The position numbers and the translations under genes are program-made. DNA of 64,000 nt from an uncultured Chitinophagaceae bacterium (GTDB lineage: Bacteria > Bacteroidota > Ignavibacteria > UBA10030 > UBA8401): positions 9,865 through 73,864 of the forward strand of contig CAYTOA010000005.1 in the NCBI GenBank assembly GCA_964439265.1. Direction: 5' to 3'. Below, one piece after another: positions 1,353-20,900 of the stretch. The notes under the pieces are model-generated. The model searched no databases and was not told where the DNA came from. It saw only the letters and a program-made list of their open reading frames with translations. Every line of letters starts with the position of its first letter. Positions within the stretch are counted from its first letter, which is position 1.

Positions 1353-4300
1353 TTGAGGCATTCAATGGATAATCACCTCCGCATCCTGATGATTGAGGAT
1401 TCTGAGAACGACGCTCATCTTATTGTGCGACATCTCCAAAAAGCAAATTACAGCGTCGAGTTTGAGCGAGTCGAAACGGCCGACCGGATGAGTGCAGCTC
1501 TTTCCGATCGTCCGTGGGATTTCATCTTCTCGGATTATACGATGCCGCAATTCAACGCGTTTGCTGCGTTGAAGCTCCTTCAGGAAAGCGGACGGGATAT
1601 TCCTTTTATCGTTATCTCGGGGACAAGCGGGGAGGAAACGGCCGTCGAGATCATGAAATTGGGCGCGCACGATTATCTGATGAAAGATACGCTGGCGCGT
1701 CTCGTTCCGGTGATAAAACGGGAGATCGAAGACACCCGCTCCCGGAAGCAACGCCGGATGACGGAGAAAGCTTTGATGGAAAGTGAAACGCGCTTCAGTT
1801 CTCTGATTGAAACCGCACGCGACATTATCTTCAGCCTTGCTCCGGACGGTAAAATTACCACACTGAATCCATCATTCGAAACAGTTAGCGGCTGGCCAAG
1901 TGCTGAGTGGATCGGTAGACCTTTTATGGAATTGCTATTTCCCGAGGATATTCCCATTGCTCTCGATCGCTTCAGCAGAGTCATTGCGGGAGAGCCGAAT
2001 GTTTTTACTGAGTTACGTGTCCGAACAAAGGGCCGGGGCGTAATTCAGGTTGAGGTTATCGTGACCCGCCGTCTTCAGAACGGAGAATTGATAGAGTTGC
2101 TTGGAATTGCGCGGGATGTCAGCGAGAGAAAAGAGGCCGAGATACGATTGCGAAGGAACGAAGCTTTGTTGTCCGATGCGATGAAAATTGCGCGTCTTGG
2201 GCCATGGGAGCAAGACGTCGTGACCGGCAAGTACATTTTCAACGACCATTTTTACGACGTTTTCCGCACGACCGCAAAAGAAGTGGGTGGGTATACCATG
2301 TCTTCCGCCGAATATGTTAAGCGTTTCGTTCATCCTGACGACGCGGTCTGGGTGCAGCGTGAGATCCAAAACTCACTCATATCTCCTGAGCTCGAGACGA
2401 GCCATCACCTGGAACATCGCATGCTCTATGCAAACGGCGAAACTGGCTACCTTGATGCAAGCATCTTCATCGTTAAAGACGAAAACGGTCGCTTGACCAG
2501 GAGGTACGGCGTCAACCAGGATATCACGGCGCGCAAAAAGGCTGAACTCGCCTTGCGAAGAAATGAAGCCTTGCTTTCCGACACAATGAAGATTGCCTCT
2601 CTCGGGCCGTGGGAATATAATGTGGAGCGCGACATCTTCACCTTCAACGATCACTTCTACGCTATTTTCCGAACTACGGCAGCAGACGTTGGAGGGTATA
2701 CGATGTCATCTGCCGAATATACCCGGCGGTTCGTGCACCCGGACGATGTCGCCCTCGTAGGCTTAGAAATCGGCAAAGCGCTTGCAACAACCGATTTGCA
2801 GTATAGCCAGCGAATGGAGCATCGCATGATCTACGCTAACGGCGAGATCGGCTATCTCGAGGTAACCATCTTTGTCGTGAAAGACAAGGATGGGCACACT
2901 GTCAGGACGTATGGGGTGAATCAAGACGTTACTGTGCGGAAAGCGTCGGAGAAGGCATTGCGCGAGAGCGAGGAACGCTACCGTCAGTTCTTCGAAGACG
3001 ATCTGACCGGCGACTTCATCAGCACTGTCGGCGGAAAGATCCTTTCCTGCAACCCTGCGTTCGCCCGTATCTATGGATTCGAATCGGTCGAAGAGGTGCT
3101 GCGTACAAACGCAGAATCATTTTATTTCTCCAGAGTCGACCGGGAGAGTCTCCTGGCGCTCCTTCGTGAAAAAAGGAAGCTGGAATATTACGAAGAAGTG
3201 GCGAAGCGAAAAGACGGGAAAACTATTTACCTTGTATCGAATCAATTCGGAATCTTCAACGACAAGGGAGAACTTGTCCAGATAAAAGGGTACATCTTCG
3301 ACAACACCGAACGCCGGTTGCTCGAAGATCAACTGCGCCAGTCACAGAAAATGGAGAGTATCGGAACTCTTGCCGGCGGTATCGCACACGATTTCAACAA
3401 CATTCTTAACAACATTCTCGGATTTGTCATGCAACTTAAGAAATACGCTCATGATCCGGTGAAGGTCATGAAATATGGGGAAACGATAGAGCGATCAGCG
3501 ACACGAGGGGCAGAGTTGTCGGCTCATCTTCTCTCTGTATCACGAATGAAAAAAAGGGAAGAGTCGGAGTTCAACGTCGGCTTGCTTATTAATGAGGTTG
3601 CAAGTTTGTGTACCGAAACATTCCCCCGCTCGATCACAATTACTCAGATCCTCGGAGAAGAACTGGTCCCTATTAAAGGTGACCGCGGATCATTGTACCA
3701 GGTCCTGCTGAATTTGACTGTTAATGCACGCGACGCAATGCCGAACGGGGGGACACTTACGATCGAAGCCAGAACCCGGCTTGTCGGGCAGGATGTGAAT
3801 ATGCGCCTCCTACCGCCGACATCGACACGCTGTATCGAGATCAAAGTGGCCGATACAGGATGCGGTATGTCGGAAGCGGTGCGGGAGAAAATGTTCGATC
3901 CGTTCTTTACCACAAAAGAGCAAGGGAAAGGGACTGGCCTGGGTCTCTCGATCGTCTATAACATTGTTAAAGAACACCATGGTACAATCCTTGTAGAAAG
4001 CGAGGAAGGCGCCGGCACCGCGTTTAAAGTTTACCTCCCCGCCGTCGAACCGGCGCCAGTTCGGGATGAGTCTTCGGGCGTTTCCGCTGCAACAGGCGGA
4101 GAGCTTGTGCTGTTGGTTGATGACGAAGAGATGATGCAGGAACTCGGGAAGGAATTGCTGGAAGATAACGGATACAGGGTTCTTATCGCGAAGGATGGTG
4201 TCGAGGCTGTCGAACAGTACCGCGAGCGCGGAAAAGAGATCGCACTCGTTATCCTTGACCTTGTGATGCCGAGGATGGACGGAGGACAGACGTACATGGA

Positions 4301-4466
4301 ATTGAAAAAAATCAACAAAAATGTAAGAGCCTTCTTCTGCTCCGGCTTCACTTCGGACAAAGTGATCACGCAGCTTCTGGAGGAAGAACATCTGCAGGCA
4401 ATCAAAAAACCGTTTCATCCGACTGATTTCATAAAAATGGTTCAATCTACTATGCACGGTAACTGA
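1353..4466 (+). CDS. Hybrid sensor histidine kinase: REC, multiple PAS (tandem PAS_3 pair), HisKA (HDFNN type), HATPase_c, C-terminal REC
   Basis: N-terminal receiver ([10 protein letters not shown]...IFSDYTMP...LMKD). Duplicated ~135-aa PAS_3-like module ([41 protein letters not shown]). H-box [14 protein letters not shown]-box [16 protein letters not shown]-terminal receiver LVLLVDDEE...[11 protein letters not shown]. Confidence 0.9.
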
Positions 4467-4580
4467 ACCAGAATTATCCGATGTGACTCTGCCTTGTTCT
4501 TTCTGATAACGAAGCATAAAGCTTCATGCTGATTTCCTGAGAGCGAATGCCCATACTGCTGAAGAAAGAGGGATCTTACG

Positions 4581-7500
4581 ATGCCTAACACCGGCATACT
4601 CCGTAGTGCGTTTTCCCGATATTCCGGTCAGTCCGCAATTGTCCGTTACACGATGGTGTATATTGTTCTTTCGTGTATCTGGATTGGATTCTCTGACAGA
4701 GTGCTTTATTGGACCGTTACTGACCCCGCCCTCCTGCCAACCTTCGCTACGATCAAGGGTTGGTTGTTCGTTGCTGTAACGGCCCTTTTATGGTACGGGC
4801 TCATGACCCGGAATGCCTCAAAGATATCGAGCTCGCAATCGGCCTACCGAACGCTTATTCATGCCAGTCCTATTCCCATCGCCGTGATGAGGATCGCGGA
4901 TGGTACTTACCTGGAGGTCAATGATAGTTTTGTCAAACTGAGCGGGTTCAACAAAAATGAAATAGTGGGACATTCAATTATTGAACTCGGGTTCTATCCT
5001 GATGCATCCACACGGGCTGACATTTTGCAGGTATTGAAGAGAGATGGCAGGTTGCAGGCGTCGGATCGCCGGTTCCGGACGAGATCGGGCGAACTCATTG
5101 ACACGCTCTTGTGGGTTGAGCCAATTTCTTTGGACGATGAGCCGCTTGTTCTCGCACTTGCACTTGATCTCACCGACCGAAAGCGAGCTGAAGAAAGGCT
5201 CAAAAAAAGCGAACAGCGTTTCGCAACTGTTTTTTCAGCAAGCCCTATTTGCACCAGCCTCACCCGGCTTGACGATGGCAGATTTCTCGACGCAAATCAG
5301 GCGTTTCTGTCGCTGCTGGAATACCAACGCGAGGGGGTGATCGGAAGCGACCCGATTTCGTTGAACATGTGGGTGTATCCGGACGATCGGATTAAAATGG
5401 TGGGAATGCTCCGAGAGAAAGGCCGGTCGGATGAGATAGAAACGCAATTTCGCTCAAAAAGCGGAAAGGTCAAAGACGTAAAAATTATAGCGGAGCTAAT
5501 CGAAATCGCCGGTCAAAGGTATATCCTGGGACTTTTCGAGGATATAAGCGCCCGGAAGCAGGCCCAGGCAGAACTCGATCGTGAGAACCATCGGAACAAA
5601 ATGCTCCTCCGCATCGCGAGCGACGGGATCCATGTCCTCGATTTGGACGGCAATGTTTTAGATGCCAGCGACTCGTTCTGCAAAATGCTTGGATACACCC
5701 GTGATGAATTGCTATCAATGAATGTGCGGGATTGGGATGTCGCGACGAAGGACGATGAATTAACGGCGAACTTCAGACCTTTCGACAATTTCAAAGACTC
5801 TATCAGGATCATCGAAAGGCGGCATCGTCGAAAGGACGGAAGCATTTTGGATGTAGAGATATCTTCTACCGCAGCAGTCTTTGAGGGCAAAAGGATAGTT
5901 TACGCATCGGCTCGGGATATTTCTGAACGGAAACTGGCAGAGGAAAAACTAATCAAGTCGGAAGGGGAACTGATCAGAGCGCAGGAGGTGGCGCATGTCG
6001 GCAGTTGGGTATGGAACGTCAAATCGGAAAGTATTCTCTGGTCGAGTGAGATGTATCGTATCTTTGGTATTGATAAAAAAATATTTACCGGGTCTTTGCA
6101 GGACATTCTTGCTTCTGCCGTATATCCGGATCAGGCGAATAAACCTGAAAAAGTAAACTGGTCGGATCTTCGGGAAGACAGGAACGGGCCGTTGGAACTC
6201 CGCATCGAATGGCCCGATAAGACAATTCACTATATCTGGGCGGAGACCGGCGACTTCCAACTTGATGAACAAGGTAACCCGGCTTTGCTTTCCGGAATAG
6301 TCCAGGATATCACAGACCGCAAAGCGGCAGAGGCGGAGCTTAATAGGCTGCGGAAAGCCGTTGAAACATCTCAAGAGATAGTTTTTCTTACCGACAAGGA
6401 GGGTGTCTTCACGTATGTTAATCCGGAGTTCACGAGAGTCTATGGCTATAAAGCCGCCGAGATCGTCGGATCCAGCACGCCGAGGATTCTCAAAAGCGGT
6501 ACGCTGCGAGATGAGGATTACAGCCTCTTTTGGCGGACTTTGGCGGAAGGGAAAATGGTACGGAGTGAAATTGTTAATAAAGCCAAGGATGGTCGATTAA
6601 TTCCCGCTGAAGTTTCCGTCAGCCCGGTATTTAACGAAACTGGGACCATTGACGGTTATCTGGCGATACAAAGAGACATCTCAGAGCGAAAACGCACCGA
6701 AGAATCTTTACGACGCAGTGAAACAAGCCTTGCGGAGGCTCAACGTATTGCCCGTATCGGCAGCTGGGAGTGGGATTCATTGACAGGAGCTGTTGTCTGG
6801 TCCAAAGAACTCTCAAATATGCTGGGACGAGAGGCAAGCGCCGGCTCTGCTGGAGTCCTGATACTTTCACAATCTTCTCCGAGCGATATCGAGCGGGAGC
6901 GGCGGGCGATTGAGAATACATTAAATACAGGTGTTCGGTACGAACTTGAATTTGAAATTGTCAAGGAGAATAACGCAAAGATCTGGATATCTGCACGGGG
7001 AGAAATAAAGAGTGATGCAATAGGACATGTAATCGGAATGCGGGGGACAGTTCTCGATATTACCGACAGGAAATTTCTGGAGCTGCAATTGCTTAAGGCT
7101 CAGAGGATGGAAACGGTGGGAACTCTATCGGCAGGTGTTGCCCACGACTTCAACAATATCCTTAATATCATCGGTGGAAACCTGCGGCTCATCTCAGAAG
7201 CTCCCGATGATGTGCGTAAGAACCAGGGGCGCTTTGCTGCGATCGCAGGAGTTACGGAGAGAGGCGCGGAGCTTGTCCGGCAGCTGCAATTCTTCTCCGG
7301 AAGAGCAGATCTCTCCAGGCGAGGCGTAGAAGTGAACAAAATAATAAAGGAAAATGCCGCAATACTCAACGAAACATTCCCGAAAACAATTGCCGTGCGG
7401 CTCTCGCTGGCGGAGGGGCTTCCTCCGGTCCTTGCGGACCCAAATCAGCTGCATCAGGTACTTTTGAATCTCAGCGTTAACGCGAGGGATGCGATGCGTG

Positions 7501-8243
7501 CGGGCGGCACGATCACTTTTTCAACTGAACTTGCTGAAACCAGGCTGTTCCGCAATCGTTTTCCCCGCGCCCAGACGTCTCCATACGTAAAAATCTCAGT
7601 CAGGGATACCGGTGACGGCATGGATAGCGAAACACAACGGAGGATCTTCGACCCATTCTTTACGACAAAAGAAGTTGGAAAAGGGACCGGGCTGGGTTTA
7701 TCGGTCGTGTTGGGGATCATTGAGAGCCACAACGGCTTCGTTGAAGTGGAGAGCGAGCCCGGGAAAGGGAGTGAGTTCAGAATGTTCATACCGGCTGCTG
7801 AAGGAATAATTGTTCGAAAAGATGCTGAAGTAAAAAATCTCAAGGTGCCCATTCGGGGAACAGAGACGATACTCTTTGTTGATGACGAAGAGCTGGCTCG
7901 AGAACTTGCGGTCGATCAATTGACCGAGCTTGGCTATACAGTTGTTACCGCAAGCGACGGGGAAAGCGCCGTGACGACGTATCGAGACCAGAGAGATCGC
8001 ATTGCCATAGTTTTGTCGGATTTCGGCCTTCCAAATTTTGACGGCGAAGAAGTGTTCAGGCGGTTGAAAGAGATAAACCCTGAGGTGCAATTTGTCCTCC
8101 TCACAGGGATGATAGAGCAGGAAAAGATCGGCCAACTTCTGCACGGGGGAATAAAGGATATCGTTCTAAAGCCGTACAAATTTTCTGAGGTTATCGCGAA
8201 AATGAGGAAACTGCTCGACGAAAAGAATCGTCCACGCGAATAG
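4581..8243 (+). CDS. Membrane-anchored multi-PAS hybrid sensor histidine kinase with C-terminal REC
   Basis: Two N-terminal hydrophobic segments followed by about six PAS/PAC units. H-box [16 protein letters not shown]. HATPase ([15 protein letters not shown]). Receiver ILFVDDEE...VLSDFGLPNFDG. RBS agaggga upstream. Confidence 0.9.
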   Translation: MPNTGILRSAFSRYSGQSAIVRYTMVYIVLSCIWIGFSDRVLYWTVTDPALLPTFATIKGWLFVAVTALLWYGLMTRNASKISSSQSAYRTLIHASPIPIAVMRIADGTYLEVNDSFVKLSGFNKNEIVGHSIIELGFYPDASTRADILQVLKRDGRLQASDRRFRTRSGELIDTLLWVEPISLDDEPLVLALALDLTDRKRAEERLKKSEQRFATVFSASPICTSLTRLDDGRFLDANQAFLSLLEYQREGVIGSDPISLNMWVYPDDRIKMVGMLREKGRSDEIETQFRSKSGKVKDVKIIAELIEIAGQRYILGLFEDISARKQAQAELDRENHRNKMLLRIASDGIHVLDLDGNVLDASDSFCKMLGYTRDELLSMNVRDWDVATKDDELTANFRPFDNFKDSIRIIERRHRRKDGSILDVEISSTAAVFEGKRIVYASARDISERKLAEEKLIKSEGELIRAQEVAHVGSWVWNVKSESILWSSEMYRIFGIDKKIFTGSLQDILASAVYPDQANKPEKVNWSDLREDRNGPLELRIEWPDKTIHYIWAETGDFQLDEQGNPALLSGIVQDITDRKAAEAELNRLRKAVETSQEIVFLTDKEGVFTYVNPEFTRVYGYKAAEIVGSSTPRILKSGTLRDEDYSLFWRTLAEGKMVRSEIVNKAKDGRLIPAEVSVSPVFNETGTIDGYLAIQRDISERKRTEESLRRSETSLAEAQRIARIGSWEWDSLTGAVVWSKELSNMLGREASAGSAGVLILSQSSPSDIERERRAIENTLNTGVRYELEFEIVKENNAKIWISARGEIKSDAIGHVIGMRGTVLDITDRKFLELQLLKAQRMETVGTLSAGVAHDFNNILNIIGGNLRLISEAPDDVRKNQGRFAAIAGVTERGAELVRQLQFFSGRADLSRRGVEVNKIIKENAAILNETFPKTIAVRLSLAEGLPPVLADPNQLHQVLLNLSVNARDAMRAGGTITFSTELAETRLFRNRFPRAQTSPYVKISVRDTGDGMDSETQRRIFDPFFTTKEVGKGTGLGLSVVLGIIESHNGFVEVESEPGKGSEFRMFIPAAEGIIVRKDAEVKNLKVPIRGTETILFVDDEELARELAVDQLTELGYTVVTASDGESAVTTYRDQRDRIAIVLSDFGLPNFDGEEVFRRLKEINPEVQFVLLTGMIEQEKIGQLLHGGIKDIVLKPYKFSEVIAKMRKLLDEKNRPRE

Positions 8244-8579
8244 GGCATCGATATCTGCCGACAAAGCGCTCCCGCGTTTGCCACTCAGTCATTTCTCGCA
8301 AAAGCAAGACATCCCTTCATTCAAAGTCCATCCAGTCAGAGTCCAATTGATTCAGCGTAGTCCCTGATCCCGCATAAAAGGGGATCAGAACGACATGCCA
8401 CTATTGGACAAGTGGCTAATACCCGCCAGAAAATAATCCTCCCACCCAGAGCCAATTTCCTGCCCCTCTGAAAAACCCAAAGTTCGCTCGCTTTTGCTCC
8501 ATTTCTCTGTCACGACAACGTGGCACGTGCTTTGAACATGTGCATGCCAAGGAATATAGAATCATGATTCGCGGCATCA

Positions 8580-8855
8580 ATGACACCACGAGATAATAAA
8601 AAGAAAGTCGGCCACACCGCACAGCCGGGAGTTTTTAAGGAATGTACGATGTGCGGAAAAAAATGGTCAACAAAAGATGAATTTCTTGGCGATAAAGAAA
8701 TCCGTTTGAACGGCTATCAATGGAACAGGAATAAGCTGCGCTCGGGCGAAGAGCTTGCAGGGTTGTTGATATTTACTCATGCAAAAGCTGAGTGTTATAC
8801 GACGTTGGGCGTCGAGGCGCGGAGTTTCAAAGTTCCTTCCCGGGCTCGTCAATGA
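8580..8855 (+). CDS. Hypothetical small Cys-containing protein (possible Zn-ribbon); start may instead be the ATG at 8651
   Basis: ORF of 91 aa, or 68 aa from the MCGKKW start. Carries the motif C-x2-CG-x2-WS-x-KDE, which it shares with the neighbouring small ORF. No recognisable family. Confidence 0.2.
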   Translation: MTPRDNKKKVGHTAQPGVFKECTMCGKKWSTKDEFLGDKEIRLNGYQWNRNKLRSGEELAGLLIFTHAKAECYTTLGVEARSFKVPSRARQ

Positions 8856-8919
8856 CGGTTTCGTATCGATTGCATTGAAAGAATCAAGCTCTTAGACAAC
8901 ACAATACACGGAGGTTATT

Positions 8920-9132
8920 ATGAATAGGGAAGTTCTTAGATCTGAATTTGTTCAAACCATCGACGGTCGGGAGCAATGTCCGGAGTGCGGTCATCTCTGG
9001 AGCGACGAAGCCGCGGCTCATTATCATGACTGCCGCTACTTTTTTATCGATGGAGACAGCGAAGAGGATGAATACTTCTTCGAGGAAGTTGCAGAGCCGA
9101 GACATCAACCGATGATGAAAACGGCGGCGTAG
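8920..9132 (+). CDS. Hypothetical small protein with CxxCG..W..HYHDC motif and acidic C-terminus
   Basis: Strong RBS (ggaggt) 7 nt upstream of the ATG. 70 aa with CPECGHLWSDE...HYHDC followed by a D/E-rich tail. Confidence 0.35.
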   Translation: MNREVLRSEFVQTIDGREQCPECGHLWSDEAAAHYHDCRYFFIDGDSEEDEYFFEEVAEPRHQPMMKTAA

Positions 9133-9461
9133 CTTGTTTGCGAGACAACTCTCGATCGCATCCTGGGAGTCTACCGAAAGCGGTAAATACTCTTTTGTCA
9201 GACGGCAAAGCATGACCGGATTTGAATCGTTCCCAAACAGAGTAAGACCAGCCGAATACTCCTGTTCGCGGAGATTCCTTCGCTGAATATTGAGCACGTC
9301 AATTTAAAATTTGAGGCCGAGAGACGGGAGAGCTGAAAGCGTGGCTCGGCGAGGAACAGGAGCCTAACCGTCTGTGGTGTTGTCGTCGACGTTTGTCTGT
9401 GTGGTTGGGTTTCTCTACGGGTTGAAAGAGTTAAGTAGTACTAGTTGAATAATACATAGCA

Positions 9462-12400
9462 ATGTTTCTAAACCAAACCAATATGAAGGGAAAACGAGAA
9501 ATGATTTCGAAACCAGCAACAAAGAAGGCCGGAAGCAAAAGGTCGGGGTCTCACCAGGATGCAGCGATGGCAGAGATACTTCGTCTTGCTGAAGCGGCAA
9601 AAGCGGGGCGACTTGCAGAGCGAGCCGACCTCACAAAAGTTGACGGCGATGCCAGGGAGCTCCTCCAGGGCGTCAACGAAATGCTTGATGCGGTTATTAT
9701 GCCGCTCAATGTTACCGCCAAGTATGTCGACGACATCAGCAAAGGCGTAATTCCTCCGGTCATCACCGACAACTACAACGGTGATTTTAACGTCATCAAA
9801 ACCAACCTGAATTCAGTTGTGAAGATGATGAGCGACCTGTTGTCCGAGACGGATAAATTAGTCAAAGCGACAGTAGACGGCAAATTATCGACTCGCGGTG
9901 ACTCTGCCAAATTTTCGGGCGGCTGGGGTATGTTGGTCGGCGGAGTCAATAACCTCGTCGATGCATTTGTCAGGCCGATCAACGTTACAGCGGAATATGT
10001 CGACCGGATTTCCAAAGGCGACATTCCCCCGAAGATCGTCGATACATACAATGGCGATTTCAACGAGATCAAGAACAATCTTAACGCATGTATCGATACG
10101 ATGACTGGTCTGCTTGTCGAGACCGATACATTAATCAAAGCAACGGTCGAAGGCAGGCTTTCAGTGCGCGCCGAAGCGGGCAAATTTGCCGGCGGCTGGG
10201 GCAAACTGGTCGGCGGTGTCAACAACCTCGTCGATGCATTTGTCAGGCCGATCAACGTTACAGCGGAATATGTCGATCGCATTTCCAAAGGCGACATCCC
10301 GCCGAAGATCGTCGATACGTACAACGGCGATTTCAACGAGATCAAAAACAATTTGAACGCCTGTATCGACACGATGACCGGACTGCTGGTTGAGACCGAT
10401 ATGTTAATCAAGGCGACGGTAGAAGGTAAATTGTCGACACGCGGCGACGCAGCGAAATTTGCCGGCGGTTGGGGCAAATTGGTCGGCGGAGTTAACAACC
10501 TCGTCGATGCGTTTGTCAGACCGATCAACGTCACAGCAGAATATGTCGACCGGATTTCCAAAGGCGACATTCCGCCGAAGATCGTGGATACGTACAACGG
10601 CGATTTCAACGAGATCAAGAACAATCTTAACGCTTGCATCGATACGATGAGCGGACTGCTTGTCGAGACCGATATGTTAATCAAAGCGACAGTTGAAGGT
10701 AGGCTTTCGGTGCGCGCTGAAGCGGGCAAATTTGCCGGCGGCTGGGGCAAATTGGTTGGCGGAGTTAACAACCTCGTCGATGCATTTGTCAGACCGATCA
10801 ACGTTACGGCAGAATATGTCGACCGCATCTCCAAAGGCGACATCCCGCCAAAGATCGTCGATACGTACAACGGTGATTTTAACGAGATCAAGAATAACCT
10901 TAACGCCTGTATCGATACGATGAGCGGACTGCTTGTCGAGACCGATATGTTAATCAAAGCGACAGTTGAAGGTAGGCTTTCGGTGCGCGCTGAAGCGGGC
11001 AAATTTGCCGGCGGCTGGGGCAAATTGGTTGGCGGAGTTAACAACCTCGTCGATGCATTTGTCAGACCGATCAACGTTACGGCAGAATATGTCGACCGCA
11101 TCTCCAAAGGCGACATCCCGCCAAAGATCGTTGATACATACAACGGTGATTTTAACGAGATCAAAAACAACCTTAACGCCTGTATCGATACGATGACTGG
11201 TCTCCTGGTTGAAACAGATACGTTAATCAAAGCGACAGTTGAGGGCAGATTATCAGTGCGCGCAGAAGCAGGCAAATTTGCCGGCGGCTGGGGCAAACTG
11301 GTCGGCGGAGTAAACAACCTCGTCGATGCATTTGTCAGACCGATCAACGTTACGGCAGAATATGTCGACCGCATCTCCAAAGGCGACATCCCGCCAAAGA
11401 TCGTTGATACATACAATGGCGATTTCAATGAGATCAAGAATAACCTTAATGCCTGTATCGATACGATGAGCGGACTATTAACAGAAACAGACAAACTCAT
11501 TAAGGCCACGGTTGAAGGAAAATTGTCGACACGCGGAGACGCGGACAAGTTCGCCGGCGGCTGGGGCAAACTGATCGGCGGAGTCAACAACCTCGTCGAT
11601 GCATTTGTCAGGCCGATCAATGTGACGGCAGAATATGTCGACCGGATATCCAAAGGCGATATCCCGCCAAAGATCGTTGATACATACAATGGCGATTTCA
11701 ATGAGATCAAGAATAACCTTAATGCCTGTATCGATACGATGAGCGGACTATTAACAGAAACAGACAAACTCATTAAGGCCACGGTTGAAGGAAAATTGTC
11801 GACACGCGGAGACGCGGACAAGTTCGCCGGCGGCTGGGGCAAACTGATCGGCGGAGTCAACAACCTCGTCGATGCATTTGTCAGGCCGATCAATGTGACG
11901 GCAGAATATGTCGACCGGATATCCAAAGGCGATATCCCGCCAAAGATCGTTGACGTTTACAATGGCGACTTTAACGAGATCAAGAACAATCTGAACGCCT
12001 GTATCGATACGATGAGCGGTCTGCTCGTCGAGACCGATATTCTAATCAAAGCGACAGTTGAAGGCAAGCTTTCAGTGCGCGCAGAAGCGGGCAAATTTGC
12101 CGGCGGCTGGGGCAAACTGGTCGGCGGAGTTAACACTCTCGTCGATGCGTTTGTCAAACCGATCAACGTTACGGCGGAATATGTCGACCGGATTTCCAAA
12201 GGCGACATCCCGCCGAAGATCACCGATACCTACCATGGTGATTTCAATGCGATCAAGAGCAACCTGAATGCTTGCATCGACACGATGACTGGCCTTTTGG
12301 CTGAGACAGACATGTTGATCAAGGCGACGGTTGAAGGTCGATTGGCAGTACGCGGCGAAACGGGCAAATTTGCAGGCGGTTGGAGTAAACTTGTCGGCGG

Positions 12401-13826
12401 AGTGAACACTCTTGTCGATGCGTTTGTGAAACCGATCAACGTTACAGCTGAATATGTCGATCGAATCTCCAAAGGCGACATCCCGCCAAAAATCACCGAT
12501 GTATACCAGGGCGATTTCAACGAGATCAAGACCAACCTGAACCAGGCCATTAACGCAATAAACTTATTGGTTTCGGATGGCGTCACGCTTGCGCAAGCGG
12601 GCATCGAAGGGAAGTTGGCCACACGTACCGATGCGACGAAGCATCAGGGCGACTTCCGCAAGATCGTCGAAGGAACCAACAACCTGTTGGATGCGGTGAT
12701 CAAGCCGATCCAGGAGGCCGCTGAAGTGTTGGCAGAGCTTGCGAAAGGTGACCTGACGGCACGTATTGAAGGTCAATATCAAGGCGAGCATGCGATGATC
12801 AAGGACAGCATCAATGAGATGAGCGAATCTCTGGATCGCGCAATGAGAGAAGTAGGAGAAGCGGTCAGTGCGACGGCGAGCGCCTCAAGCCAGATCAGTT
12901 CGAGCAGCGAGGAGATGGCAGCAGGAGCTCAAGAGCAAACGAGCCAGGCAGCCGAAGTCGCGAGCGCGGTCGAAGAAATGACAAAGACGATCGTCGAGAA
13001 CTCGAAGAATGCAAGCGACACCGCCGGAACAGCGAAAGAAGCCAAGGGCGCTGCCGAAGCCGGAGGCAAGGTCGTGGAAGAGACCATCACCGGTATGAGG
13101 CAGATCGCCGAGGTTGTTAAGAAATCGGCCGGGACGGTTCAGGAGCTTGGCAAGTCGAGCGATCAGATCGGAGAGATCATCGGAGTGATCGATGATATCG
13201 CCGATCAGACGAACCTGCTGGCGTTGAATGCTGCCATCGAGGCGGCACGAGCCGGAGAACAAGGAAGAGGGTTCGCCGTGGTTGCCGATGAAGTCAGGAA
13301 ACTGGCCGAACGGACGACCAAAGCAACTAAGGAAATCGCCGGTATGATCAAAAAGATTCAGCTCGATACCAAGGGCGCCGTTGAGTCGATGGACGAAGGC
13401 ACCAAGAAGGTCGATGCGGGGATCGCGTTGGCAGACAAGGCTGGCATTTCGCTGCATGAAATCGTCGGGATCAGTCAGAAGGTAACGGACATGGTCACTC
13501 AGATCGCAGCAGCAAGTGAGGAGCAGTCGAGTGCAAGCGAGCAGATTTCCAAGAACGTTGAGGGAATCAGCGCGGTAACAGGCGAGACGGCTCAAGGTGT
13601 TCAGCAGATCGCAAGAGCTGCCGAAGACCTGAATCGTTTGACAGCCAACCTCGAACTTTTGGTTTCGAAGTTCAAGTTGTCCAGCGACAGTTCTGCCCAG
13701 CGCACTACCGGGCACAAGCCTGCAGGGACTTCAGGAAAATCATCCATGAAGGCTATGTCAGGACCGGCTAAGTCGAAGATCGCAGTACGCGAGAATGGGA
13801 AGATTGTGCCGCTCGATCAACAATGA
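9462..13826 (+). CDS. Soluble methyl-accepting chemotaxis protein with a poly-HAMP array (~23 HAMP-like units) and a C-terminal MCP signalling domain
   Basis: No N-terminal transmembrane segment. Eleven tandem 91-aa units, each made of two alternating HAMP-like halves ([43 protein letters not shown] and [44 protein letters not shown]). One canonical HAMP follows ([18 protein letters not shown]). MCP signature [35 protein letters not shown]. Confidence 0.9.
9687..12692 (+). repeat. Tandem array of 11 copies of a 273-bp unit (coding, in frame) inside the MCP gene; several copies are near-identical at the DNA level
   Basis: Identical spurious-frame ORF translations at 10693-10923 and 10966-11196 sit exactly 273 bp apart, so those copies are near-identical. 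The encoded 91-aa unit repeats 11 times. The repeat also generates a 717-aa antisense artefact ORF. Confidence 0.9.
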
Positions 13827-13841
13827 TAATTCATCCCTTCG

Positions 13842-13872
13842 CTCCCCTTTGTCTTCGTACGACAAAGGGGAG
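13842..13872 (+). terminator. Stem-loop (12-bp stem ctcccctttgtc / gacaaaggggag, 7-nt loop) 16 nt after the MCP stop; no U-tract
   Basis: Perfect inverted repeat read directly from the sequence. Not followed by a T-run, so it may be an RNA-stability hairpin or weak terminator rather than a canonical intrinsic terminator. Confidence 0.35.
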
Positions 13873-14026
13873 ACGGGTAGGGAGACTCGACAGGACCAAA
13901 TCATAGAGATTGTCGGCAGCTTGCTCAAGATTTTGCAAGCGTGCCAAATTCCAAGTCGGGATATAAAAGAGACAGTCCATTTTTTTTCAAGGGCGTTAGC
14001 CCAAACACAACATAGGAGACAACGAA

Positions 14027-14521
14027 ATGTCCGGAACAACAACAGACATCAAAGGAGCGACACAGGGCAAATCGGAAGAGTTGATCCAGTTGGTGAGTTT
14101 CAACATCGGTGACGAAGAGTTCGGTGTTGATATCCTGAAAGTGCAAGAGATCAATCGTATGCTTGACGTAACCCGCGTGCCGAACGCCCCGGAGTACGTG
14201 GACGGAGTGATCAACCTAAGAGGGAAGGTCATTCCTATCATAGATTTGCGACGGCGGTTCCAAATGGAGCGCAAAGAGCACGATAAGAATACCCGTATTG
14301 TCGTCGTCGAACTGAGCGGCAAGGTGGTCGGGTTCGTTGTTGACGCCGTGAGCGAAGTATTGAGGATCCCGAAGAGCGTTACCGAAGCACCGCCGCCGAT
14401 GGTGGCCGGAGTTGATGCGTCCTATATCACCGCAGTAGGTAAACTCGAAGACCGGCTGCTCATCTTATTGGACCTCGAAAAAGTTCTTTCAAACGAGGAC
14501 CAAAAAGCGTTGGCGGCATAA
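14027..14521 (+). CDS. cheW: Chemotaxis coupling protein CheW
   Basis: CheW domain: LVSFNIGDEEFGVDILKVQEI...VPNAPEYVDGVINLRGKVIPIIDLRRRF. The size (164 aa) is typical. Confidence 0.9.
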   Translation: MSGTTTDIKGATQGKSEELIQLVSFNIGDEEFGVDILKVQEINRMLDVTRVPNAPEYVDGVINLRGKVIPIIDLRRRFQMERKEHDKNTRIVVVELSGKVVGFVVDAVSEVLRIPKSVTEAPPPMVAGVDASYITAVGKLEDRLLILLDLEKVLSNEDQKALAA

Positions 14522-14582
14522 CGGTCAGAGATTCTAGAATGCGTTCCCATTCCTTTCAATTGGATGGGCAGAAACTCGTTCG

Positions 14583-15245
14583 ATGCTGCATTTGAAACTA
14601 GTTGTGAACAATCAGGAACGGAGCTATTTCATGGCATTTACTTTCTTCTTTCGCGACATCACAGTCCTTGATATGATCTCAAAACATGTGATGCCGAATC
14701 TGGCCGGCTACAGCCGGGTCAGGATTTGGGACGGGGGGTGCGCGATGGGGCCGGAGCCATATTCGCTCGCCATAACCCTTGCTGAATCAATGGGGCATTT
14801 TGCCTTCCGCAATATTCATATCGACGCGACGGACATCGATGAGATGGAAGATTTCGGCAAAACCATCGAACTTGGAATCTATCCAAAAGACCAGGTAGAG
14901 CGAATTCCTCCGGATATTTTCGCAAAGTATTTTGTCCCTGCTGAGAAGGAGGGATATTTCCGCATCATCGAATCCGTGAGACAGTCGATTCATTTCCAGC
15001 GTCATGACCTTCTATCGCTCAAGCCAATCGGTGAAGGTTATCATTTGATCGTATGTAAGAATGTACTTCTCCATTTTCACCCAGTCGACCGCGCAAAGGT
15101 GATAAGAATGTTTTATTCCGCCCTCGCTCCCGGCGGATATTTTGCCACCGAGCGGACGCAGGAGATGCCCCAGGAATTGGCTCATCTATTTTCCCAGGTT
15201 TCGTCCGAAGGGCAGTTGTACAAGAAACTGGAAGTTGCAGCGTGA
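14583..15245 (+). CDS. CheR-type SAM-dependent methyltransferase, catalytic domain only (lacks the N-terminal helical domain)
   Basis: FFFRD motif, IWDGGCAMGPEPYSLAI, ATDID, LIVCKNVLLHF and APGGYF all match the CheR methyltransferase fold. An alternative start at the ATG at 14631 has a better RBS (ggag). Confidence 0.65.
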   Translation: MLHLKLVVNNQERSYFMAFTFFFRDITVLDMISKHVMPNLAGYSRVRIWDGGCAMGPEPYSLAITLAESMGHFAFRNIHIDATDIDEMEDFGKTIELGIYPKDQVERIPPDIFAKYFVPAEKEGYFRIIESVRQSIHFQRHDLLSLKPIGEGYHLIVCKNVLLHFHPVDRAKVIRMFYSALAPGGYFATERTQEMPQELAHLFSQVSSEGQLYKKLEVAA

Positions 15246-15853
15246 AAATTCATCTTCTCTCATCACCAAGCGCAGTGTATTCGGGGAACGCTTATCTCGT
15301 CCTCGGAGATTCCAATCGGCTTGATGACGTGAATTCGCTGGTCGATGTTGGTACCGACGGCAGCATATTACGGAGCATCGCTCTTACCTGGACCGGTGTC
15401 GGAAAGAAGCCCGTCGATCGCGTTGTCCTTACGCATTCTCATTTCGACCATGCGGGGGGTCTCTCAAAAATTCGTGAAGCGTATGATCCGGAAATTTGTG
15501 CGTTTGCATTGATTGAGGGAGTAAAGAGGCAACTATTCCACGGCGACATCCTTCTGCTCGGGGATGAATGGTTCGAAGTTCTGCATGCCCCCGAGCATTC
15601 TTCCGACTCAATCTGTCTTTATTCGGAGCGAACGGGAACTCTTTTCTCCGGCGATGCCCCGTTTTTCATACGCAGCCCCGGTGGATCGTATGGAGAGCAT
15701 TTCGTGGTCTTACTCGAAGACCTTTTGCGGCGCGGAGTAAGCGCTATCTATTCGGGTCATGATATTCCAATTGTTAATAACGCAATGCAGATCATTCGTG
15801 ATACGCTTCAGAACGTCATACTGAGCACCGGCACGGCACACATCTCGAAGTAG
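15242..15853 (+). CDS. MBL-fold metallo-hydrolase
   Basis: HxHxDH motif (VLTHSHFDHAGG) plus downstream His/Asp ligands. The GTG start overlaps the upstream stop (GTGA), indicating translational coupling. Confidence 0.7.
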   Translation: MKIHLLSSPSAVYSGNAYLVLGDSNRLDDVNSLVDVGTDGSILRSIALTWTGVGKKPVDRVVLTHSHFDHAGGLSKIREAYDPEICAFALIEGVKRQLFHGDILLLGDEWFEVLHAPEHSSDSICLYSERTGTLFSGDAPFFIRSPGGSYGEHFVVLLEDLLRRGVSAIYSGHDIPIVNNAMQIIRDTLQNVILSTGTAHISK

Positions 15854-15904
15854 CTGGACAATGAACAACCGGAAAACGTTAGACGAAAGAAGAAGAGACA
15901 GACG

Positions 15905-17326
15905 ATGAAACGCAGAGTACTGTCGATAGTGCTGTTGGTTGTATTCGGCGGGGTCGCGAACAGCCAGGATCTCACAAGAGTCGCTGACAGCGCCGCAGTT
16001 ACCGAGAATTCTGCAAAAAATGTGCATGGTAAGGACGTGAGGCAGCGAAAAGTGGTTCTCGCTGCTCTTCGAACCGAAGCCGAAAGGCTTAATGACAAGC
16101 TCGAGCGAACCTCAGCGGTTGCAGCATCCTCTGCGAGCACAGAAAATCAAAAAAACGAGAGCGTGGGATCGCTGGCACAAAGGATCGGAGCACTCGAAAT
16201 AAAGATGGAGAAAAACGAGGAATCGCAGGACTACGCCTTCCTTGCGTCTCAGCTTACATCGCTCATAGATGAACTCAACCGGTCGATCGACGAAACCAAA
16301 GCTCTTCAAATGAATACCGACAAAGTCATCACTTCCGTTCAGCACGCTGCACAATTCGAGGGTCAGGCCTTTTCCTCCTATTCATACACAACCGATGGCA
16401 TTGAAGGGAAGAACGATACTAGGTTCGATTTGGACAGGATGTATCTGACGGCGAAAGTGCAGTTGTTCGATCAGGGGAAGTTTCAATTAACCAGCGACCT
16501 TTTCCGCGACTCTTCCCTGGTTTCTCATTATTCCGGGTTTTCATTGAAAGTGCAATTTGCATTTCTCGATTATTCCCCGGCGGATCCGGTATCGATAAAA
16601 ATCGGCGTGATACCCGGAGTATGGTCGGAATTTATGGATACGTACTGGAAATACCGAGGCTTGTCTCCAAACGTGACGGACAGGAATGGATATTATCCGT
16701 TGGCGGACATAGGTATTCAGGTACTCTATAAGTTGCCCGGGAACATTGGAGATGTCTCCGCATTCATGCTGAATGGAAATGGTTATGCGTCTCCGGAATC
16801 CAATCGTTTCAAGGATTTCGCATTGCGCGCATGCATTGCCCCCTTTCGTTCGGACCCGCTTCTGGCGCAGCTTGTCGTCGCAGCCTATGGTTACAATGGG
16901 TGGAACCAGAATGTTGCCGGCGACGCTCTCCCCCGAAATCGGTACGGCGCAATGGTCAGCTATGGCTACTCATTCGCGACAGCCGGAGTAGAATACGACA
17001 TACGGACAGACGCTCCAACGAACGCAGACACTTTAGTTAACGGCAATGCCCTCTCTGTTTTCGGCGAGATAAAGGCGCCTTGGGTTGAATGGGCAAATAC
17101 CTTTTCATTGGTATGGCGATACGATATTGTGAATCCGGACATTCAGAGGGGTGGAACTGTGAGTCGTTTTGGGATCCTCGGCATCGCCTTCAAACCGCAC
17201 GAGAAACTGACCTTCGTGATCGACAGACAATTGACAAGAACGGAGAGTGCGACTCTAATACGAAATGATGGTGCACTAACCGACTACGATAACCGGTGGT
17301 TTCTTCACGCGCTTGTAACTTTTTAG
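15905..17326 (+). CDS. Secreted/outer-membrane protein: signal peptide, N-terminal coiled coil, C-terminal beta-barrel-like domain ending in Phe (putative porin)
   Basis: Signal peptide MKRRVLSIVLLVVFGGVANSQD. Coiled-coil region to about aa 140. Alternating hydrophobic beta-strand pattern with a terminal ...LVTF, typical of OMP beta-barrels. Confidence 0.5.
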   Translation: MKRRVLSIVLLVVFGGVANSQDLTRVADSAAVTENSAKNVHGKDVRQRKVVLAALRTEAERLNDKLERTSAVAASSASTENQKNESVGSLAQRIGALEIKMEKNEESQDYAFLASQLTSLIDELNRSIDETKALQMNTDKVITSVQHAAQFEGQAFSSYSYTTDGIEGKNDTRFDLDRMYLTAKVQLFDQGKFQLTSDLFRDSSLVSHYSGFSLKVQFAFLDYSPADPVSIKIGVIPGVWSEFMDTYWKYRGLSPNVTDRNGYYPLADIGIQVLYKLPGNIGDVSAFMLNGNGYASPESNRFKDFALRACIAPFRSDPLLAQLVVAAYGYNGWNQNVAGDALPRNRYGAMVSYGYSFATAGVEYDIRTDAPTNADTLVNGNALSVFGEIKAPWVEWANTFSLVWRYDIVNPDIQRGGTVSRFGILGIAFKPHEKLTFVIDRQLTRTESATLIRNDGALTDYDNRWFLHALVTF

Positions 17327-17515
17327 TTAGAATCAAACGAATGCAACATATCAATGTCGCATTGTATCGTGGTTGCAAATTCTACCGCTTCCAGTACTAG
17401 AGATGATCTCATCAACAATTGGGATTCCACGGTCGAGTGTTGATGTTCAGGAAGCTCGATCTTCAAGAAGACATTCAATATCACAGAACATCAAACAACA
17501 GAATGAGGGAAAACT

Positions 17516-17923
17516 ATGCCACTGATGACATGGAAAAACGAGTACAGCGTCAAGATCCAAACGATCGATTCACAACACAAGAAGCTTATCGATCTCCTAA
17601 ACCAAATTTATGATGCATCGCGTTTGGGCAAAGGGAAAGAAGTCCTTGGAAAAATTCTGAACGAGCTTGTTGTCTACACGAAAGTTCACTTTACAACCGA
17701 AGAGGATTTTTTTAAGAAGTTTTCTTATCCCGACTATGTGCTGCATAAGATCGAACACGATAAACTGACAAAACAAGTCACTGACTTTCAGGAGCAGTAT
17801 GAAGCTGGCAATGCAACCCTATCCATAGAAATCATGCAGTTCTTGAAGGATTGGCTAAGCGATCATATCCTCGGCACTGACAAGAAATACGTCGAATTCC
17901 TGCATTCTAAAGGTTTACACTGA
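17516..17923 (+). CDS. Bacteriohemerythrin (HHE cation-binding domain)
   Basis: W..Y..I..QHK..., H-x3-E (HFTTEEDFF), HKIEHDKL and DWLSDHILGTDKKY iron-ligand motifs. 135 aa. RBS gaggga. Confidence 0.85.
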   Translation: MPLMTWKNEYSVKIQTIDSQHKKLIDLLNQIYDASRLGKGKEVLGKILNELVVYTKVHFTTEEDFFKKFSYPDYVLHKIEHDKLTKQVTDFQEQYEAGNATLSIEIMQFLKDWLSDHILGTDKKYVEFLHSKGLH

Positions 17924-17996
17924 ACTACCTCATCCAGATAGAGAGACTAATATCTCGCCGAGGAGGGATTGGAAGAATCGATGGTGGAGCGGGAGG

Positions 17997-20900
17997 TTGC
18001 TTCATCACGGTCGCAGGAAAATAGAGAAGTGCGAATTTTTCACCAACGGATGTTTCACGGCAGAGTCAACAATGGAAATTGCGGAAATGACGAAGAACAG
18101 CCATGCAGAGGAGTCCACCGACGGAATTTGCATGACCGATGAAGAGGGCCGTGTCATCGAATGGAATCATGGCATGCAGGACATCACCGGGATCAACCCA
18201 GAAGAGGTCTTGGGCAGACCATTATGGGACGTGCGATTCCAATTGACTCCGCCGGAAGCTCGCACGGACGATTTATTGAAACGGCTCGAGACTGCCGCGA
18301 TGAATCAGTTGAAAACCGGTAATAGCGAATCGGCGGCCGAATTCGCGGAACAATGGATTCTTCAGCAGGACGGCAGCCGGAAGCTCGTCCTGAAGAATTT
18401 TTTTACCGTGAAGACTCAAACCGGCTATATGATAGGTGCCATAGTCAGAGACATTACATCTGAGAGGAATGCCGAGAATCAACTGCTGTTCTTAAAAAGA
18501 GCAGTAGAAAGCACTTCTTCTGCGGTTCTCCTTTGCGACCTGGAAGGGAGGATAGAGTATGCTAACCCCGGAGCTCTGGCGATGGTAGAGTTCACAGCGG
18601 AGGAGGCAGCTGGAAAGCTATTGTCTGATTTTGGCGATAGCATGGCTAAAGAGAATCTAAGCTCCCAAACTATTCCAGCGCTGAAGAAATCAGGTCAGTG
18701 GTCTGGCGAAGTTAACCTTCAGAAGAGAGACGGAACTCTTGTTCCGATCCATTCTACTTGTGCGCTTGTCTCTGATAGCCATGGCAATCCTCAAGGTCTG
18801 CTGTCAATCTGTTATGACCTTACTCAACGCAAAAAGGCAGAGTCTGCTCTCCAAACGAGCGAGAGTCTACTCTCAAACGCCATGAACATGGCGAATCTGG
18901 GACATTGGGAATACGATGTGGCCGCAGATCTCTTCACCTTCAACGATAATTTCTATTCCATTTTCCGTACGACGGCCGAGAAGGTCGGAGGATATACGAT
19001 GTCCTCTGCCCAATACGCGCAAAGATTTGTCCATCCCGATGACATGTCTGTGGTCAGCACAGAAATTCGGAAAGCGCTTGAGGATCGTGACCCCCAGTTC
19101 GGTGCAACACTGGATCATCGAATAATCTATGCCGACGGTTCGCCCGGCTATATTTCCGTCCGATCCTTCGCTGTCAAGGATGAAGAGCATAAAGCGGTCA
19201 AACTCTACGGAGTCAATCAGGACATCACCGAACGTAAACAACTGGAAGAAGCGCTGCTGAAGAGCAAACAGCGGTATGACAAGCTAGCTTCAACAATTCC
19301 TGTTGGTTTGTACCTTTTGCATAGTAAGCCTGATGAATCATTCACCTTTGACTACGTCAGCCCAAGGATGGCGGAGATTCTCGACCTGAGCGTCGAAAGC
19401 CTTCTTGGAGATGCACAACTTGCGTTTAGCCAAATACTTCTGGAGGACCAGACCTCTTTCGTGAGTGTCAATCGGGAGAGTTTTGAAAAGCAGTGTTCCT
19501 TTGATTGGGAGGGGCGGATTCAGATCAACGGAGCCGTTAAGTGGTTGCACATAGCCTCCACTCCCGAATTGCAGGAGGATGGAGATACTTTGTGGCATGG
19601 TGTCGTCGGCGATCTCACGGATGCCAAGCTAGCAGAGGGGGCACTGAAGGCAAGTGAACGTAGGATCCGTTCGTACATCGAGCATGCGCCCATGGGTGTT
19701 TTCATCATTGACGGTTCCGGATGCATTACTGAAGTGAATCCCCAAGGAATCAAAGTGATCGGGTACTCAGAGATTGAGGTTCTCGGGAGGCCGCTGACGG
19801 ATTTCGTAGTGCCTCAATTCTTGGATAAGGCCGGATGGGACCTCGGTACTGTTGTTACGGGAGGGAATGTCGAGGATGTTCTACAGGCTCGAAGAAAAGA
19901 CGGCTCGTTTGTCTGGATCTCGGTAAACTGCGTGAAGATCGATGACAATCGTTTCATGTCCTTCTGCCAAGACATCACTTCGAATAAACAGGCCGAAATG
20001 GCGTTGGCGGAGAGTGAGGCAAAATATCGCTCCGTTGTTGACGGTGTTAAGGAAGTTATTTTCACGACTGATGCGCAAGGAAATTGGACGTTTCTTAATC
20101 CGGCCTGGGAAGAGATCACAGGATTCACTGTTGAAGAAACCATCGGACAGTTGTTTCTGAACTACCTTCTTCCCGAGGACAGCAAGTTGAACATAGCGCG
20201 ATTTGAACGGTTGATTGAAGAGAAGGAAAACTTCTACCGTCACGAAATTCGTTACAGAACAAAGAGTGGCGGTTTCCGTTGGATAGAAGTGTCTGCACGA
20301 CTGACAAGAGACGAGAACGGTGCGATCACCGGAACCGCCGGAACCCTCATGGATACAACGGAGAGGCACTTGGCAGAAGATGCCCTCAAAGAAGCGAAAG
20401 AGAATCTGGAGTTACGGGTTTCCAAGCGGACAGCAGAACTCCGCCTCGTTGCAGAAGAACTGCACGTCGAACTTGATGAGCGAAAGAAAGTTGAGCAAGC
20501 CCTTAGTGTATCAAAAAAGAGGGTCTCGCTGCACATTCAGCAGACACCTCTTGCTGTGATTGAATGGGACTTGGAACAACGTATTTCGACATGGAACCCT
20601 GGGGCTGAGAAGGTGTTCGGTTATCCTCAGGCAGAAGCCAAGGGGCAACCTGCATCATTCATCGTTCCCGAAACGGAAAAAAAACACTCCATCGAAATGT
20701 TTCAAAAGCAGGTAAGGAATCGGAAGAGTTTGAAGGGTGTTTTTAAGAACATAACGAAGTCCGGAAAGTTGATCACGTGTGAATGGGTCGACACGGTCTT
20801 GGAGGATGAAACAGGAAAGGTTGTTGGTCTGACTTCCATCGCGCAAGACATCACCGAAAGGCTCGATGCGGAGCATCAGCTTCGTATGCTTTCGTACGCG

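Follow-up and report, generated by a model that had tools for sequence, protein, structure and literature searches.

Soluble chemoreceptors that carry poly-HAMP arrays, built of non-canonical group A and canonical group B HAMPs, have been described by Coles et al. (Protein Sci 2026, PMC13446029), who catalogued 723 such chemoreceptors in NR90. They report "dozens" of HAMPs in near-identical di-HAMP modules and related arrays that differ in module number. They also propose tuning through array length and a rotation-toggle model for di-HAMP modules, and they raise post-translational modification of HAMPs as a possibility. Three further systems are close. Aer2 of Pseudomonas aeruginosa and Vibrio is a soluble methyl-accepting chemotaxis protein (MCP) of the "multi-HAMP" type, in which a haem-PAS sensor divides five diverse HAMPs. 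FrzCD of Myxococcus xanthus is a cytoplasmic receptor whose N-terminal tail binds DNA and which forms nucleoid-bound clusters (PMC12077210). The kinase-type poly-HAMP arrays of M. xanthus AskA and AskB, the latter with 31 HAMPs, and of the fungal group III hybrid histidine kinases Nik1/Os-1 are considered to be of independent origin in the published analysis. Herein, we analysed a window of 64,000 nucleotides (nt) from an uncultured Chitinophagaceae bacterium (GTDB class Ignavibacteria; assembly GCA_964439265.1, contig CAYTOA010000005.1, positions 9,865 to 73,864), in which the gene at 9462-13826 encodes a poly-HAMP MCP. All coordinates are those of the window unless a contig is named. The receptor is an ordinary new member of the soluble poly-HAMP chemoreceptor family already described, and its parts are as follows.

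9462-13826, + strand: gene of the poly-HAMP MCP, an open reading frame (ORF) of 1454 amino acids (aa) with Pfam matches to HAMP_2 (12 times), HAMP and MCPsignal.
9462-9566, + strand: basic N-terminal tail, aa 1-35, net charge +6 (+4 when counted from M14).
9567-12836, + strand: poly-HAMP array, aa 36-1125, 24 concatenated HAMPs of ~45.5 aa each, 12 non-canonical alternating with 12 canonical.
9636-12638, + strand: eleven in-register 273-bp (91-aa) di-HAMP units, recognised by the spacing of the NVTA motif.
11388-11953, + strand: perfect period-273 repeat of 566 nt inside units 7-9, one tandem duplication.
12696-12836, + strand: terminal canonical HAMP, aa 1079-1125, the sole HAMP that passes the general Pfam HAMP model (PF00672).
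12837-13676, + strand: methyl-accepting (MA) signalling hairpin, aa 1126-1405, with about 20 heptads per arm (~40 in the hairpin) by a hand count that is not a formal class assignment.
13677-13823, + strand: basic 49-aa C-terminal tail with a clade-specific 17-residue motif.

The receptor is read from a single long ORF. Its likely start is the ATG at 9501 (M14), giving 1441 aa, because the N-termini of orthologues begin MISKPA and an AAGGG lies ~10 nt 5' of this codon. The basic N-terminal tail is followed by 1090 aa of back-to-back HAMPs (24 x 45.4 aa), the MA signalling domain and the 49-aa tail, which is unstructured. Within the array, the NVTA motif recurs 11 times at an exact 91-aa spacing (aa 59-1059). 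The eleven units so defined are preceded by a half unit (aa 36-58) and followed by another half unit and the canonical HAMP. Tandem Repeats Finder reported one array in the whole 64-kb window, at 9908-12542, with a period of 273, 9.7 copies, 87% matches and 0% indels. No transmembrane segment was predicted, the highest 19-aa Kyte-Doolittle mean in the whole protein being 1.18 against a threshold of 1.6, and only 35 aa lie ahead of the array. Pfam MCPsignal matches aa 1190-1373 (E=3.5e-55), the conserved 15-residue motif of the hairpin tip begins at aa 1268, and a motif search predicted methylation-consensus sites at aa 1146 and aa 1349, as expected of an MCP. Four of the features by which the family is recognised in PMC13446029 are found here: at least five consecutive, directly connected HAMPs (24 in aa 36-1125), alternation of canonical and non-canonical HAMPs, an array directly 5' of the MA domain without an upstream sensor or membrane anchor, and junction glycines with an identical linker length. 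The glycines at the HAMP junctions are invariant in a 40-sequence alignment, and the linker between HAMPs does not vary in length (0% indels, exact 91-aa period).

The HAMP identity of the repeats was assessed by profile, homology and structure prediction. Pfam HAMP_2 (PF18947) matches the receptor 12 times with a total of 1123 bits. The canonical half-unit scanned alone aligns to HAMP_2 positions 19-66 with 79 bits, and scores only 14.9 bits with the general HAMP model. In a phmmer search, a 387-aa piece of the array matched the crystallised AskA poly-HAMP 9TRK over 242 contiguous residues that include both half-units (E=1e-17); the same piece also matched the Aer2 PAS-HAMP entry 3VOL, at the HAMP pair that follows the PAS domain. 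AlphaFold2 was run on aa 36-331 as a monomer. The prediction from the single sequence (pLDDT 41.6) was unusable, and the run with a 40-row alignment (pLDDT 90.3) was used instead. The model contains 31-residue helices every 45-46 aa with 14-15-aa connectors between them, and the connectors alternate. The modelled segment has poly-HAMP topology, with the AS2 helix of one domain predicted to continue directly into the AS1 helix of the next. The top three PDB matches of the model in Foldseek were the Aer2 poly-HAMP crystals 4I44, 4I3M and 3LNR (probability 1.0 each); their E-values were weak (~0.01), as expected for an extended monomer.

A preliminary description of the window, made from the letters and their ORFs, had proposed a membrane-free cytoplasmic chemoreceptor with eleven 91-aa tandem units, each an alternating pair of HAMP-like modules, and a canonical HAMP at the end. 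These points are borne out by the data above. The count of ~23 HAMPs is corrected to 24.

Compared with the group A/B poly-HAMP chemoreceptors (Dunin-Horkawicz & Lupas 2010; PMC13446029; exemplar WP_274427672), the receptor is the same kind of soluble MCP without an upstream sensor. Alternating, highly similar di-HAMP modules adjoining the MA domain, junction glycines, a fixed linker and a varying number of modules are shared, and nothing essential differs, the 24 HAMPs being mid-range for the family. What is its own is a clade-specific basic N-terminal tail, whose motif SKPAxKKxGSKRSG is kept in orthologues, and a C-terminal motif ending in [IL]VP, shared with its close orthologues, that takes the place of an EFEKF-type terminal pentapeptide, the latter being absent from the C-terminal tail. 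Many other poly-HAMP MCPs end in EFEKF, EFERF or EFEKY, an acidic-aromatic pentapeptide that resembles a CheR/CheB tether.

The receptor shares with FrzCD (PMC12077210) a cytoplasmic location, a basic N-terminal tail (~30 aa in FrzCD), HAMPs and an MA domain in this order, and the lack of a recognisable ligand-binding domain. FrzCD has one di-HAMP and serves the reversals of gliding motility, whereas the window receptor has twelve and its locus lies near flagellar genes. Basic tails recur in many soluble homologues; the charge of the tail is +4 to +6 and conserved among orthologues in the window receptor, and ranges from -7 to +5 in the other soluble homologues. Aer2 (3LNR, 3VOL) likewise combines concatenated HAMPs with a soluble MCP and gives the best structural matches, its HAMP4-5 region aligning to one unit of the window receptor. 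Membership in the Aer2 family was rejected, given that no PAS domain was matched and that the NCBIfam Aer2 model scored 653.6 bits against a cut-off of 1200. The kinase-type proteins (AskA/AskB, 9TRK/9TRJ; Nik1/Os-1) also carry long di-HAMP arrays with a ~91-92-aa repeat, but their HAMPs belong to groups C/D and their output is made of GAF, histidine kinase and receiver domains. The window receptor ends in an MA domain and showed no kinase domain in the Pfam scan, so that this assignment was discarded as well.

The array had also been described as far longer than those usually reported. A homologue search does not agree with this: at E<=1e-20 it returned 6852 homologues from many bacterial phyla and Methanospirillum, and among the best 120 of these, 63 have at least 11 di-HAMP equivalents (median 11.2), with a maximum of ~20.5 (P0003, 2255 aa). 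The "dozens" of HAMPs in the literature and the 31 of AskB point the same way, and the idea of a length-tunable relay, offered in the preliminary description, had already been proposed in PMC13446029. Many of the longest arrays (13-18 di-HAMP units; P0010, P0011, P0031, P0093 and others) follow transmembrane 4HB/TarH-type or PAS sensor domains, and long arrays are therefore not confined to soluble, sensor-less receptors. Taken alone, the receptor adds little: it is a further mid-sized representative of a family in which hundreds are catalogued. What is of interest at this locus is a natural pair of 11- and 12-unit alleles and an accessory gene pair, a short CheR and an MBL-fold hydrolase, for which no description was found; both are treated below.

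Sequence comparison of the repeats shows that most copies are old and are held by purifying selection. Among units 2-10, identity is 78-96% in DNA and 82-100% in protein, and units 1 and 11 have diverged to only 58-71% DNA identity to the other units. The term near-identical, used previously for the repeats, was accordingly an overstatement. Among the internal units, third codon positions hold 74% of the differences, and the mean dN of 0.053 and mean dS of 0.83 give a dN/dS of 0.06; the identity of the units at the protein level is therefore attributed to purifying selection. Ongoing gene conversion as a general cause of the similarity was rejected, as synonymous sites are near saturation and as the similarity of internal units between the window and the closest species-representative genome, L015 (76-88%), equals that within each genome. 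Unit 1 has a clear orthologue in L015 (81% identity). A very recent expansion, likewise proposed before, does not hold as a general statement; it does hold for the perfect repeat at 11388-11953, which is a single very recent 273-bp tandem duplication and the only recent event in the array. The spurious-frame ORFs at 10693-10923 and 10966-11196, said to translate identically, are identical at 227 of 231 nt and differ at 4 of 76 residues in that frame, only the true frame translating identically.

We consider it likely that the array is a relay-competent rod of a soluble poly-HAMP chemoreceptor, and the protein is most likely a cytoplasmic receptor that feeds the flagellar CheA through CheW. These candidate partners are encoded downstream.

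14027-14521, + strand: CheW, 200 nt downstream of the receptor gene.
35979-37811, + strand: CheA, the likely kinase partner, in a flagellar/chemotaxis cluster.

As a homodimer, the array would form a continuous four-helix rod with an estimated length of ~55 nm, the estimate being based on helices of 31 residues, each running through two HAMPs; including the MA hairpin, the protein would reach ~75 nm in total. Following the di-HAMP proposal in the literature, each non-canonical HAMP may reverse the helix-rotation state of the canonical HAMP that precedes it. A conformational bias set anywhere on the rod, or at the N-terminus, would thereby be passed on to the MA domain, and from there via CheW to CheA and the flagellar motor. 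Two candidates for the input lead: the basic tail may bind DNA or another polyanion in the manner of FrzCD, or the array may be covalently modified. Whole 273-bp modules would be gained and lost by unequal recombination, each module remaining under strong purifying selection.

Several points weigh against this reading. For the input signal of the receptor there are candidates only, and its coupling to a CheA 22 kb away is suggested by gene content only. Of the non-canonical half-unit, Pfam covers the AS2 helix only and has no model for the AS1 helix and the connector, so that the second HAMP type is not proven by Pfam alone; the expectation that both half-units would match HAMP profiles was thus confirmed for the canonical half and only in part for the other. 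The HAMP identity of that AS1 helix and connector is suggested by the homology to AskA and Aer2 and by the AlphaFold model. Dimeric four-helix packing with alternating x-da/da-x states is compatible with the predicted monomer topology, the model being that of a monomer alone. Finally, a published AlphaFold survey found chemoreceptor-type arrays to be conformationally stable rather than switch-like, and a static rod therefore fits the published conformations as well as a relay does.

Two other accounts of the array deserve consideration. The first is prompted by two genes that follow CheW.

14583-15245, + strand: short CheR-like methyltransferase, S-adenosylmethionine-binding domain only, without CheR_N.
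15242-15853, + strand: MBL-fold hydrolase, 203 aa, intact HxHxDH, overlapping the short CheR gene by 4 nt.

According to this account, regulation or sensing takes place in the array itself: the pair would reversibly modify residues of the di-HAMPs and thereby set the conformational bias apart from the classical CheR/CheB sites. We regard it as possible but unlikely, and it can hold together with the relay model. Besides the 4-nt overlap of the two genes, its support includes the recurrence of the pair. Among 46 poly-HAMP MCP loci with full flanks, drawn from many phyla, 20 carry the short CheR and the hydrolase within 8 kb, and in 19 of these 20 they are adjacent on the same strand. In the reverse direction, all seven sampled homologues of the hydrolase (49-54% identity; from Ozemobacteraceae, Spirochaetota, Deferrimicrobiaceae, Riflebacteria, Nitrospirae and two metagenome contigs) directly follow a CheR of 200-204 aa, and a HAMP_2-containing MCP lies within 9 kb in 7 of 7. 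Canonical adaptation genes coexist with the pair in four of the sampled clusters (full-length CheR, CheD and CheB in L093 and L094, full-length CheR in L107, CheB in the fourth), so that the pair is an additional module in these clusters. The modification of HAMPs raised in PMC13446029, and a di-HAMP consensus that is tighter across phyla than a coiled coil requires, also speak in its favour.

The same account faces several difficulties. Its support is purely one of gene neighbourhood, and within 8 kb the pair is missing from about half of the poly-HAMP loci. No classical EE/QE CheR site occurs in the units. The nearest solved relatives of the hydrolase are glyoxalase II enzymes, so distant (E~4e-8 only) that they do not fix its substrate, and the target of the pair could instead be a small molecule or the MA domain. 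A modification of the array itself by the pair is speculation, and the broader proposal, that poly-HAMP arrays are the substrate of an undescribed, dedicated modification system made of a truncated CheR-like methyltransferase and a translationally coupled MBL hydrolase, appears quite improbable to us at present. If it were true, the rod would be a multi-site element of covalent memory or tuning and not merely a relay. The conserved pair in any case bears on the question of how poly-HAMP arrays receive their input, and no description of it in chemosensory clusters was found in the searchable literature. Loci with the pair beside HAMP_2 or poly-HAMP receptors and CheW are L092-L095, L106, L107 and about 20 of L002-L081.

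It was also observed that the di-HAMP consensus is nearly the same in bacteria of many phyla and in Methanospirillum, far tighter than a coiled coil needs. It points to horizontal spread, to a surface conserved for binding or modification, or to both.

In the second account, which we hold to be doubtful, the rod carries no signal and is a passive spacer or molecular ruler that holds a surface- or nucleoid-bound basic tail at a constant distance from the CheA/CheW baseplate and perhaps also determines the geometry of a cytoplasmic receptor array. Such a role would accord with published modelling, in which conformations are stable and isolated HAMPs differ little from those embedded in arrays. 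It would also accord with the variation in unit number between near-identical alleles whose gene stays intact, with the recurrence of the basic tail in many soluble homologues, and with the nucleoid-bound clusters that FrzCD forms through such a tail. However, a simple coiled coil would suffice for a spacer, and the strict alternation together with the dN/dS of 0.06 argues for more than length. In addition, the same arrays link transmembrane sensor domains or PAS domains to the MA domain in many homologues, and in those proteins the array must be crossed by a signal. The relay-competent rod remains our preferred explanation.

The preliminary description had predicted that the copy number would vary and that the array would be a hotspot of assembly failure, and both predictions are supported. 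A contig of the same species, L001 (ENA ERZ27245407), has 11 units against the 12 of the window, with 6 mismatches over nt 6754-11680, and lacks exactly one 273-bp period of the perfect repeat at 11388-11953. ERZ27245406 and JGI 3300031240 share the 11-unit junction, so that three short-read assemblies of the species are without the duplication. Since the exact overlap of the perfect repeat (293 nt) exceeds the MEGAHIT k-mer of 141, assembly collapse explains the difference as well as true polymorphism does, and the counts of 12 and 11 units may reflect either. A sister species has three alleles (P0006, P0002 and P0004) with 99.7-99.9% identity, which at one site differ in length by exactly 91 and 182 aa. 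The 11/12-unit allele pair (~99% identical, one perfect 273-bp module apart) offers a natural case of module gain or loss that is usable for the study of array-length tuning.

The behaviour of short-read assemblies at this gene was examined by two look-ups, with the MBL protein and with CheW, which gave 10 contigs each from largely the same assemblies. In each look-up, nine of the 10 same-species contigs start inside the receptor gene or just after it, and the array is spanned by ERZ27245407 alone. Contig starts fall at window positions 10175, 11313, 12341, 12473, 13022 and farther downstream, and the contigs that break at the receptor are short-read MEGAHIT and JGI assemblies (L083-L091, L097-L105). 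Unit counts from short-read metagenomes are thus unreliable for poly-HAMP receptors, and published counts are lower bounds, given that such assemblies break or collapse at these genes. That the whole array is an assembly artefact, with only one or two units in the native gene, is nevertheless extremely improbable: although most short-read contigs of the species end inside the gene and three short-read assemblies are without the perfect 273-bp duplication, copies created in assembly would be identical, whereas the units carry many synonymous differences (mean dS 0.83) in frame within a single ORF, an independent short-read contig spans 11 units with the 6 mismatches given above, and homologous arrays of 10-20 units lie on megabase contigs, including the chromosome-level OY762209.1 and OW818698.1.

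The remaining genes of the neighbourhood to which the text refers are given here.

15905-17326: signal-peptide protein, 473 aa, no Pfam or NCBIfam match.
17516-17923, + strand: stand-alone bacteriohemerythrin.
33346-34227: full-length CheR, flagellar/chemotaxis cluster.
37760-38902: CheB, flagellar/chemotaxis cluster.

CheW is probably co-transcribed with the receptor, as no terminator-like site lies between the two genes. The 473-aa protein has a C-terminal ...LVTF ending that resembles that of an outer-membrane beta-barrel, and its gene sits between the MBL hydrolase and the hemerythrin in the window species only, being absent from that place in L015. The position of the bacteriohemerythrin is kept in L015, the closest species-level relative (14109-14516 of that contig, 80% identity), and the gene did not turn up at more distant loci; a clade-specific input of O2 or redox state could be its role. 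Beyond 30.4 kb, the window encodes FapA, the full-length CheR, a CheZ-like protein, CheA, CheB and the flagellar genes FliF to FlhF, which places CheA, CheB and CheR 20-24 kb downstream of the receptor.

The 1.2 kb upstream of the receptor (8244-9461) holds no convincing gene, the calls on the sister contig being limited to ORFs of 91 aa and 70 aa. No Rfam family was found in 8000-18000. A sigma-54 promoter scan gave 31 matches against 25.6 expected by chance, and no promoter is claimed; the sole sigma-54-like candidate upstream of the receptor lies at 8521-8536, with one mismatch, ~940 nt from the ATG. No convincing site came out of the scan for sigma-70 promoters and terminators, the "promoter" matches inside the array being the repeat itself.

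The signalling neighbourhood beside the flagellar regulon is unusually dense: around the receptor (1353-8243, 17997-23300 and 25822-29781) lie the genes of a sigma-54 activator and of four PAS-rich hybrid histidine kinases, which are very large (1037-1767 aa) and have as many as seven PAS domains. Farther downstream, the FliK-like hook-length control protein encoded at 47064-51194 has 1376 aa, several times the usual length, and only its C-terminal Flg_hook domain is recognised.

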